This document shows positions 1 through 4,455 of a DNA stretch of 4,455 nt, in pieces. The notes beneath the pieces are model-generated. The model was not told the origin of the DNA, did not search any database, and saw only the letters and a list, made by a program, of their open reading frames with translations. The position numbers and the translations under genes were made by a program. Where the stretch lies: the IMG/VR virus record IMGVR_UViG_2657245015_000009. One strand, written 5' to 3'. The stretch is from a virus (lineage: Duplodnaviria; Heunggongvirae; Uroviricota; Caudoviricetes). The stretch's first letter is position 1; each line of letters opens with the position of its first letter.

Positions 1-2445
<2,445 letters not shown>

Positions 2446-2450
2446 TCACG

Positions 2451-2454
2451 CTCC
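2451..2454 (-). promoter_or_regulatory. Shine-Dalgarno (GGAG) for J, 8-nt spacer to ATG
   Basis: Minus strand reads GGAG-CGTGAGGA-ATG; the spacer itself contains GAGGA abutting the ATG. Confidence 0.6.
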
Positions 2455-2464
2455 ATAAACGACA

Positions 2465-2484
2465 AAACCGCCCGCAGGCGGTTT
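2465..2484 (-). terminator. Perfect 8-bp stem / 4-nt loop hairpin in the I-J intergenic gap, followed on the minus strand by a U-rich run; possible weak intrinsic terminator, attenuator or mRNA-stability element
   Basis: Forward 2465..2472 aaaccgcc pairs with 2477..2484 ggcggttt, loop cgca. On the minus-strand transcript the hairpin is followed by UUUUGUCGUUUAU and then the J SD. The GC core is only 5 bp, so termination is likely partial at best. Confidence 0.3.
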
Positions 2485-2502
2485 CACATAAAACATTTTG
2501 CA

Positions 2503-3174
2503 TCAGCGACCAATCACCACAACCTGACCACCGTCCCCTTCATCTGCCGTGCTAATCTCCTGAGAGACAACACGTGACCCCACGCGCATTTCACCGTACA
2601 GAACGGGCAGAACATTGCCCTGGGCAACCATGTTATCCAGGGAGGAGAAATAGGTGTTCTGTTTGCCGTTATCCGTTGTCTGTGTACGGGGAGTTCTGGC
2701 TTTCGGTGCCAGCATCTGCGCCACACCACCGAGCACCATACTGGCACCGAGAGAAAACAGGATGCCGGTCATACCACCGGCCCCAATGGCTGCCCCCCAT
2801 GCTGCAAGGGTGGCTCCGGCAGTAAAGAATGATCCGGCAATGGCGGCTGCCCCCAGGACAATCTGGAATACACCACCTGACTTGGCCCCGGCGACTCTGG
2901 GAACAATATGAATCACAGCGCCATCAGGCAGAGTCTCATGTAACTGCGCCGTTAACCCGGACGTGCTGACGTCCCGCCCGGCAATCCGTACCTGATACCA
3001 GCCGTCGCTCAGTTTCTGACGAAACGCCGGGAGCTGTGTGGCCAGTGCCCGGATGGCTTCAGCCCCCGTTTTCACACGAAGGTCGATGCGGCGACCAAAT
3101 CGTTGTAAATCCCCGTAAAGGCAGATGCGCGCCATGCCCGGTGACGCCAGAGGGAGTGTGTGCGTCGCTGCCAT
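2503..3174 (-). CDS. I: Tail tip assembly protein I (lambda gpI-like), 223 aa, ubiquitin-like beta-grasp N-terminal domain ending in Gly-Gly followed by a Gly/Ala-rich hydrophobic segment
   Basis: Complete ORF in track (223 aa, [29 protein letters not shown]...), recognised as lambda gpI; same length as lambda I. Start ATG 3174..3172 with a GAGG-type SD about 11 nt upstream. Sits 60 nt upstream of J, as in lambda. Confidence 0.93.
   Translation of the reverse strand: MAATHTLPLASPGMARICLYGDLQRFGRRIDLRVKTGAEAIRALATQLPAFRQKLSDGWYQVRIAGRDVSTSGLTAQLHETLPDGAVIHIVPRVAGAKSGGVFQIVLGAAAIAGSFFTAGATLAAWGAAIGAGGMTGILFSLGASMVLGGVAQMLAPKARTPRTQTTDNGKQNTYFSSLDNMVAQGNVLPVLYGEMRVGSRVVSQEISTADEGDGGQVVVIGR
2707..2871 (-). 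other. Gly/Ala-rich hydrophobic segment of I (about 55 aa) with small-xxx-small spacing; possible membrane-insertion or glycine-zipper region
   Basis: VFQIVLGAAAIAGSFFTAGATLAAWGAAIGAGGMTGILFSLGASMVLGGVAQMLAP directly follows the GG and is followed by a polar C-terminal domain. Confidence 0.5.
2872..3135 (-). other. Ubiquitin-like beta-grasp domain of I (approximate bounds), ending in Gly-Gly (codons 2872..2877)
   Basis: The segment from [14 protein letters not shown] to IHIVPRVAGAKSGG has the length and hydrophobic pattern of a ThiS/MoaD/ubiquitin-like fold and terminates in GG. Confidence 0.55.
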
Positions 3175-3815
3175 TTGTCGGTATACCTCTCTCGTTTGCT
3201 CAGTTGTTCAGGAATATGGTGCAGCAGCTCGCCGTCACCACAGTAAATGGCGGCATGATTCGGCACCGATGAACCAAAACAGCACAGCAGCACATCGCCC
3301 GGCTGCGCCTCTGTCAGTGCGACACGGTAAAAACCAGTAGCCTCCATATTGTCAAGATAGAGATTCTGACCGTGACGCCACCAGTCATCCCCGCGATGAA
3401 AATTCGGCATCTCAATCCCCGCCAGATGATAAGCATCCCGGAACAGCGTGTAACAGTCCGTCACCCCGTGCTCAAAGCGCCGCCCGGTGAGATGCGGCAC
3501 ACAGCGGAACTTATGAATCGTCCCCCGGCAGACCAGCCACCACGGCAAATCACTCTGCACCTGCAGCCGCCGGTCAGCCTCACTCAGCCAGGGCAGACCA
3601 CCGGGGTGGCTGTGGACCAGCGCCACAATCTCACCCTGCATTTCTGCCTGCAGCCAGTCCTCCGGAGCCATCCGGAAATAATCCTCCGGCTCACCGGAAA
3701 TATTCACGCAGGGAAAATATCTTTCCCCCTCCGGCGCTCTCACCACGAAGCCGCACGACTCCGCTGGCGCACATCGCCGGGCGTGCGCCAGAATCGCTGA
3801 TTCTGTCTCTGTCAT
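3072..3815 (-). CDS. K: Tail tip assembly protein K (lambda gpK-like), 247 aa from the ATG at 3815; JAMM/MPN metallopeptidase domain fused to NlpC/P60 cysteine peptidase domain. Alternative internal start at 3671 would give 199 aa
   Basis: Track ORF 3072..3857 (261 aa) begins at a TTG that overlaps L; the first ATG (3815..3813, [14 protein letters not shown]...) lies 4 nt after the L stop. JAMM motif H-x-H-x7-S-x2-D present ([14 protein letters not shown]). NlpC/P60-like Cys (DCYTLF) and His (VPNHAAIY) present. Stop TGA at 3074..3072. Overlaps the start of I by 103 nt out of frame. Confidence 0.88.
3153..3485 (-). other. NlpC/P60 papain-like cysteine peptidase domain of K (approximate bounds); candidate catalytic Cys codon 3453..3455, His codon 3255..3257
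   Basis: Cys in [17 protein letters not shown] and downstream His in [17 protein letters not shown] fit the order and spacing of an NlpC/P60 Cys-His-His triad. Assigned by recognition, not alignment. Confidence 0.6.
3186..3189 (-). promoter_or_regulatory. Candidate Shine-Dalgarno (GAGG within AGAGAGG) for I, about 11-nt spacer, embedded in K coding sequence
   Basis: Minus strand reads ACGAGAGAGG-TATACCGACAA-ATG. The spacer is rather long, so this is tentative. Confidence 0.4.
3513..3812 (-). other. JAMM/MPN (JAB) metallopeptidase domain of K (approximate bounds); signature [14 protein letters not shown] at 3573..3614
   Basis: H-x-H-x7-S-x2-D motif read directly from the translation, with Glu residues upstream; domain boundaries are approximate. 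Confidence 0.7.
3682..3687 (-). promoter_or_regulatory. Strong internal Shine-Dalgarno (GGAGGA) upstream of the in-frame ATG at 3671 inside K
   Basis: Minus strand reads GCC-GGAGGA-TTATTTCCGG-ATG-GCT (Met63 of the track [17 protein letters not shown]...). This could drive a 199-aa K isoform or simply be the historical annotation start. Confidence 0.45.
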
Positions 3816-3819
3816 GGGA

Positions 3820-4455
3820 TTACTGCGAAAGTTTGTTAATGGAAAGGAAGCCGCCAAAGTTGCCGACGTTATTGCGAAACTTACAGCCGCTCAGGCATTT
3901 GCTGCATTTATCCTTCGTGATATCGGACGTCGGCTGGTCATATTCATCCGCGACTGCCGGACCGTGATAACCGCACTCATCACCGCGATAGGTCCAGGTG
4001 CAGGTGTTGGCCAGCATGATACGCCCCGGAAAAACAGCGCCATCCGTTTCCGTCGGCGTGGACAGTACAAAGGAGGCACTCACCGCGCTCAGTTCGCTGC
4101 ACTGCTCGATGCGCCAGCGGCTGATCACCTCCTGCTCCGGATCGGCGTCTCTGTTTCCGTTGACGAAGTTCACCGCATCCAGAAAACGGGCGTAAACCTT
4201 ACGCCGGACCACCGTTCCGCCGACCAGACTCTGCATATCTTCCACCATACCGGTGACCATGCCGTACAGGTTAGAGACTGCCAGCGTGGGCCGCGTACTG
4301 GTGCCTTTGCCATTCAGTTCAAAACCGCTCCCCTGAATGGCCCTTCCCGTCATGTGAAAGTTGAAACCACCGACGGCGTGGTTCAGCTCTCCGGTACCGT
4401 CGATTCCCAGGCACAGAGCGACCGTGCTGAAAGTATCGCCAAAGCGGTAGATGGT
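3820..4455 (-). CDS. L: Tail tip protein L (lambda gpL-like), 5'-partial: the N-terminus lies beyond the window end; C-terminal Cys-rich region present
   Basis: Track ORF 3820..4353 (177 aa, ...[18 protein letters not shown]...[12 protein letters not shown]...[12 protein letters not shown]...SINKLSQ) recognised as gpL. The same frame stays open upstream from 4354 to 4455 ([34 protein letters not shown]), so the track's Met at 4353 is internal. Stop TAA at 3822..3820. Confidence 0.9.
3883..4002 (-). other. Cys cluster in the C-terminal domain of L (Cys codons at 4000..4002, 3973..3975, 3904..3906, 3895..3897, 3883..3885); candidate iron-sulfur ligands
   Basis: The pattern C-x8-C ... C-x2-C-x3-C ([10 protein letters not shown] ... 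CSKCLSGC) is read from the translation; gpL-family proteins have been reported to coordinate an Fe-S cluster through C-terminal cysteines. Confidence 0.6.

Follow-up and report, generated by a model that had tools for sequence, protein, structure and literature searches.

The known [4Fe-4S] domain of lambda-family tail tip protein L, encoded in a probable lambdoid prophage remnant next to osmY

Does a group of five cysteines in a phage tail gene mark an iron-sulfur site, and does the gene that carries it still make a tail protein? Both questions are raised by a stretch of 4,455 nucleotides (here called the window) from the tailed-phage record IMGVR_UViG_2657245015_000009. An earlier note, made from the letters alone, had placed the five cysteines in the C-terminal domain of an L protein and had read them as an iron-sulfur site in a tail tip protein. 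In this study, we argue that the window encodes the known [4Fe-4S] domain of a lambda-family L, and that it does so within a lambdoid prophage remnant which was left by a deletion and is most likely non-functional. We give this reading as a whole a probability of roughly 0.88.

On the minus strand, positions 3883-4002 read as 40 codons with five cysteines, ending in ...CSKCLSGC, which is the density that had been noted. The ends of this segment are exactly the codons of lambda Cys212 (3883-3885) and Cys173 (4000-4002); between them lie, on the same strand, the codons of Cys182 (3973-3975), Cys205 (3904-3906) and Cys208 (3895-3897). The description of the protein as otherwise poor in cysteine holds, as the L-derived part of 173 amino acids has a single further one, lambda Cys140 (4099-4101, minus strand), outside the cluster. 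When this part was shuffled 200,000 times, at least five of the six cysteines fell within 40 residues in 8658 shuffles (4.3%). Because chance reaches the same density that often, the clustering is weak as evidence and on composition alone exceeds expectation only weakly. As far as sequence can tell, it is conservation and not clustering that decides the significance of these cysteines.

The identity of the protein is clear. The Pfam family PF05100 (Phage_tail_L) matches with 270.7 bits (cut-off 25, E 7.9e-81) over profile positions 33-206 of 206, and the L part shares 97% identity with residues 61-232 of lambda gpL (PDB 8IYK, 8IYL, 8K35, 8XCG, 9E7M). This places the cysteines in the C-terminal domain of L, as proposed. 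The iron-binding domain, lambda residues 154-232 by the limits given in PMC10721106, is complete at 3823-4059 on the minus strand. In the 2023 cryo-EM study of the lambda tail, the authors built an iron-sulfur cluster into extra density amid Cys173, Cys182, Cys205 and Cys212 (PMC10721106). The same paper describes the iron-binding domain as surface-exposed, against the earlier supposition that it is buried, and, in its citation of Tam et al. 2013 (J Mol Biol 425:2450, PMID 23542343), refers to biochemistry on gpL homologues, whose [4Fe-4S]2+ cluster proved sensitive to oxygen. An equivalent domain has been reported in F-type pyocin BHP1, in T1 gp36 and in RcGTA gp13 (for RcGTA gp13: PMC10721106). 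The iron-sulfur site of gpL is therefore already known, since 2013, and offers no new lead. The 2013 work of Tam and colleagues is also said to have found that cysteine substitutions abolish gpL activity, and to have characterised the N15 homologue of gpL, whose metal content was reportedly analysed. For the copy in the window, cluster binding would follow from its 97% identity to lambda gpL.

Conservation separates the five cysteines into two kinds. A HMMER search of 1.84 billion cluster representatives yielded 1682 relatives. The 200 retrieved sequences which span the C-terminal domain were aligned and binned by identity to the query: 49 below 45%, 21 between 45 and 70% and 130 above 70%. 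Cys205 and Cys212 are kept in every sequence of all three bins (49/49, 21/21 and 130/130). Cys182 is kept in 49/49, 21/21 and 128/130, and Cys173 in 49/49, in 20 of the 21 intermediate relatives (with a gap in the remaining one) and in 123/130. The distant homologues have eight invariant columns, and these four cysteines make up half of them. Cys208 behaves otherwise: it is present in 130/130 close and 18/21 intermediate relatives and in 2 of the 49 distant ones, 28 of which have arginine instead. Cys140 is kept in 84/130, 2/21 and 0/49, from the close to the distant bin. The distant homologues of solved structure agree, as 25vf_7, 23gd_C and 9l9p_J all retain the four ligand cysteines by alignment and carry at position 208 arginine, cysteine and threonine, respectively. 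The alignment of gpL homologues which the earlier note had proposed, in order to learn which four cysteines are invariant, thus gives Cys173, Cys182, Cys205 and Cys212, each in 49/49, and these are the residues named in the cryo-EM model (PMC10721106).

Taken together, the assignment of an iron-sulfur site through C-terminal cysteines of the gpL family is borne out by the 97% identity, by the presence and invariance of the ligand cysteines and by the cryo-EM density. The five-cysteine form of the proposal needs amending: four of the cysteines are ligands and Cys208 is conserved in the lambda clade only. The site consists of four ligands plus one lambda-clade extra cysteine, in agreement with the published structure; the quantified status of Cys208 as such an extra is mildly new. 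For annotation this means that four of the five cysteines, and no more, should be counted as ligands and that Cys208 should be given as clade-specific. Cys208 yields a C-x2-C-x3-C loop, at a position which is mostly arginine in distant relatives.

By the published work, which carries over through the 97% identity, Cys173, Cys182, Cys205 and Cys212 hold one cubane [4Fe-4S] cluster, with Cys208 as a non-ligand. HDI, the N-terminal beta-sandwich of L, is part of the tube ring, and the small iron-binding domain on the outer surface of L completes the HDII-insertion domain of J. The cluster would most likely be a structural cross-brace required for the folding and assembly of L and not a catalytic redox centre. 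The earlier remark that its function is not well understood matches the literature, where the cryo-EM authors state that such functions "remain to be characterized" (PMC10721106).

We turn to the gene that encodes this domain. The recognisable genes of the module, namely the 3' two thirds of L, then K, I and the start of J, all lie on the minus strand. That K, I and J follow L on the same strand is seen from Pfam matches, from the open J frame and from synteny with phage 21 and E. coli prophages. Gene K (3072-3815, minus strand) is intact and directly downstream of L; it encodes 247 amino acids with matches to PF14464 (JAB/MPN) and PF00877 (NlpC/P60). Gene I (2503-3174, minus strand; PF06805 Lambda_tail_I, from the list of open reading frames) is intact with 223 amino acids. 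Of gene J the first 814 codons are present, open in translation and running off the window (1-2442, minus strand), with the name taken from phage annotations. By megablast, positions 1-4340 match about a hundred lambda-like phages at 96-97%, including phage 21, whose annotation under the match names L, K and I as tail tip complex proteins and J as central tail fiber.

L itself is incomplete. What is present, at 3820-4340 on the minus strand, corresponds to lambda gpL codons 61-232 followed by the stop codon (3820-3822), as judged from PF05100 and from the alignment with 8iyk_L. All L matches, in the 270 phage records as well as in every matching E. coli genome, end at position 4340, and the breakpoint in L is visible on alignment with an intact L. 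The sequence beyond it belongs to osmY: positions 4338-4455 match osmY with 99.2% identity in 5424 of the 5426 complete E. coli genomes. A base-by-base comparison shows that osmY identity starts at 4341 and that 4340 is an L base, so that 115 bases of osmY remain. This fragment (4341-4455, plus strand) was identified from E. coli genome matches and the annotated osmY locus; it holds nucleotides 456-570 of the 606 of osmY and lacks the 5' three quarters of the gene. A three-way alignment places the two genes head to head at 4340/4341 with zero shared bases. This osmY junction is a mildly new item.

Missing from L are codons 1-60 with the start codon and ribosome-binding site, together with the upstream tail genes (M, H etc.). 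A full-length L would include a complete HDI (lambda residues 1-166), of which more than a third is absent here, and it would follow M and a tape-measure gene with a start of its own; here the sequence upstream of codon 61 is osmY on the opposite strand. Hence the description of this frame as an L protein stands for the family and for the completeness of the C-terminal domain, and fails for the gene, which is incomplete. Because the first 60 codons and the upstream tail genes are missing, the present copy is unlikely to yield a working tail tip protein. The iron-binding domain would be encoded intact at this locus but not expressed as part of a functional tail protein. In annotation this copy of L should be entered as a 5'-truncated remnant abutting osmY and should not be called a functional tail protein.

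At the DNA level the truncated L shows 100% identity to intact L genes in many strains, with none of the decay that an old pseudogene would be expected to have; it must then have been truncated recently, unless the truncation is an artefact. We regard a real prophage remnant left by a deletion as the probable origin. The other view is that L is intact in the organism, that its join to osmY is a chimeric artefact, whether from misassembly, from a chimeric read or from sequence splicing, and that the iron-sulfur domain sits in a working prophage gene. This we consider unlikely, though it deserves serious weight. The L/osmY junction was absent from the 5426 complete E. coli genomes searched by megablast, its 32-mer and its 22-mer had no match in GTDB species genomes and the 22-mer had none in JGI metagenome contigs; for the 177-amino-acid open reading frame which spans the junction, no exact record was found. 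These absences are what an artefact would leave. The same is true of the osmY part being only 115 bases long and at the extreme end of the window, of the 100% identity to intact L genes and of the surroundings of K elsewhere. The 247-amino-acid K protein is present, in identical form, in 388 blocks of the searched collection and occurs in hundreds of assemblies, and in the ten contigs read after exact look-up of K it always adjoins an intact L of 232 amino acids, never the truncated one. Against an artefact stands the join itself. It has zero shared bases, which speaks against misassembly through a shared repeat, a reading we reject, and makes a graph-based misassembly unlikely, as this would require a shared k-mer. 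Furthermore, the searched collections are far from covering all draft genomes of E. coli and Shigella, and deletion fusions which end in L are common among deposited E. coli genomes, so a real deletion is plausible.

Fusions of this sort merit a description of their own. Proteins named "minor tail protein L" in public E. coli assemblies include many chimeras (among them P0121-P0124 and P0042) with in-frame N-termini of other proteins, the partners being portal, large terminase, major capsid, tape measure and a PF20691 protein. The PF20691-L fusion (P0042) occurs on 51 contigs. In decaying prophages, the L-K-I-J end seems often to be what survives. As prfC serves lambdoid prophages as an integration site, a closest whole-window match beside osmY would have favoured origin by simple deletion from a prophage at prfC/osmY. 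That match, in strain EFF60, is instead at the Qin/rspB site.

Even in a remnant left by deletion, the truncated L might be expressed, with the ATG at 4353 as its start or in a longer osmY-antisense product, and serve alone as an iron-sulfur protein or supply other lambdoid phages with a spare part. On the minus strand the L frame, which passes antisense through osmY, has no stop between the window end and 3823, 212 codons in all, and it would reach 249 codons if the E. coli osmY downstream region is taken as proxy. Some fusion product might be translated from this open frame, and the iron-sulfur domain, K, I and the N-terminus of J are undamaged. The listed open reading frame of 177 amino acids starts at the ATG at 4353, the sole ATG of this frame in the window, which is itself inside antisense osmY. 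However, no promoter-like site of the sigma-70 type was seen in 4341-4455, and neither the ATG at 4353 nor the GTG of the proxy region has a convincing Shine-Dalgarno sequence before it. With more than a third of HDI gone, folding and assembly into the tail ring are unlikely, and antisense open frames are common in GC-rich coding DNA. We therefore judge such expression very improbable. The frame carries a risk for annotation, since gene callers could wrongly report an "L fusion protein" over 3820-4455; the osmY-antisense frame should not be called a fusion gene.

A more far-reaching view sets beside such expression, as a stand-alone iron-sulfur domain, a separate role for the fifth cysteine: Cys208 would be no passenger but a spare or switchable cluster ligand. 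Through ligand exchange or the sensing of oxidative damage, it could let the surface-exposed cluster alter its state during assembly or infection. Both parts draw their support from conservation inside the close clade, and we hold this view to be highly unlikely. Weakest of all, and hardly credible, is a structural Cys4 zinc site in place of the cluster: cysteines with similar spacing often bind zinc and the metals are indistinguishable from sequence alone, but zinc, like disulfides, is rejected as the role of these cysteines on the strength of the published lambda density between the four cysteines, modelled as a cluster, with similar density in T1 gp36, and of the oxygen-sensitive [4Fe-4S]2+ published for gpL homologues as cited there (PMC10721106).

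Within the reading of a known [4Fe-4S] domain in a prophage remnant, the window can be set beside characterised systems. Lambda is the closest. It shares the gene order L-K-I-J from L downstream and all five cysteines (Cys173, Cys182, Cys205, Cys208 and Cys212) within the 97% identical region, and it differs in that residues 1-60 and the upstream genes are here replaced by osmY, and in substitutions such as His185 for Ser and Arg-Asp for Ser-Tyr at 123-124. The gpL homologues of Tam et al. 2013, known to us through citing papers, belong to the same family, with four C-terminal cysteines that hold the oxygen-sensitive cluster. LSH1 gp25, a relative of gpL, is unlike all of these in having neither the cysteines nor the cluster. 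The F2-type pyocin BHP1 (25vf chain 7, E 2.3e-29) likewise has HDI followed by a 4Fe-4S domain with the four ligand cysteines aligned; it is a tailocin and not a phage, has arginine at position 208 and carries an extra cysteine after its Cys173. The 260-amino-acid chain J of 9l9p, a "putative minor tail protein", is distant (E 1.3e-08) and has threonine at 208, yet keeps a C-terminal iron-binding domain with the four cysteines. From its length, this chain is probably phage T1 gp36. T1 gp36 and, by description, RcGTA gp13 are hub proteins that carry their iron-binding domain C-terminally, at the same position of the tip.

Some further features of the module were noted. K combines two domains, one metalloprotease-like (JAB/MPN) and one NlpC/P60 peptidase. 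As listed, its open reading frame (3072-3857, minus strand) starts at a TTG at 3857 and overlaps L; the true start is likely the ATG at 3815, four bases past the L stop, which gives the protein of 247 amino acids. Genes I and K overlap by 103 bases (3072-3174). The start of I is called differently in otherwise identical contexts (loci L002-L011), giving 223, 210 or 190 amino acids. Over positions 3800-4340, prophages of many strains (ATCC 11775, O104:H4, NU14) show 100% identity, whereas the best complete genome reaches no more than 97.4% over all 4340 bases. The segment is a mosaic, and the difference between the two values points to a different lineage as the source of the J or I part. Antisense to J, at 94-1350 on the plus strand, lies an arginine-rich open reading frame of 418 amino acids which looks spurious, being opposite a GC-rich gene.
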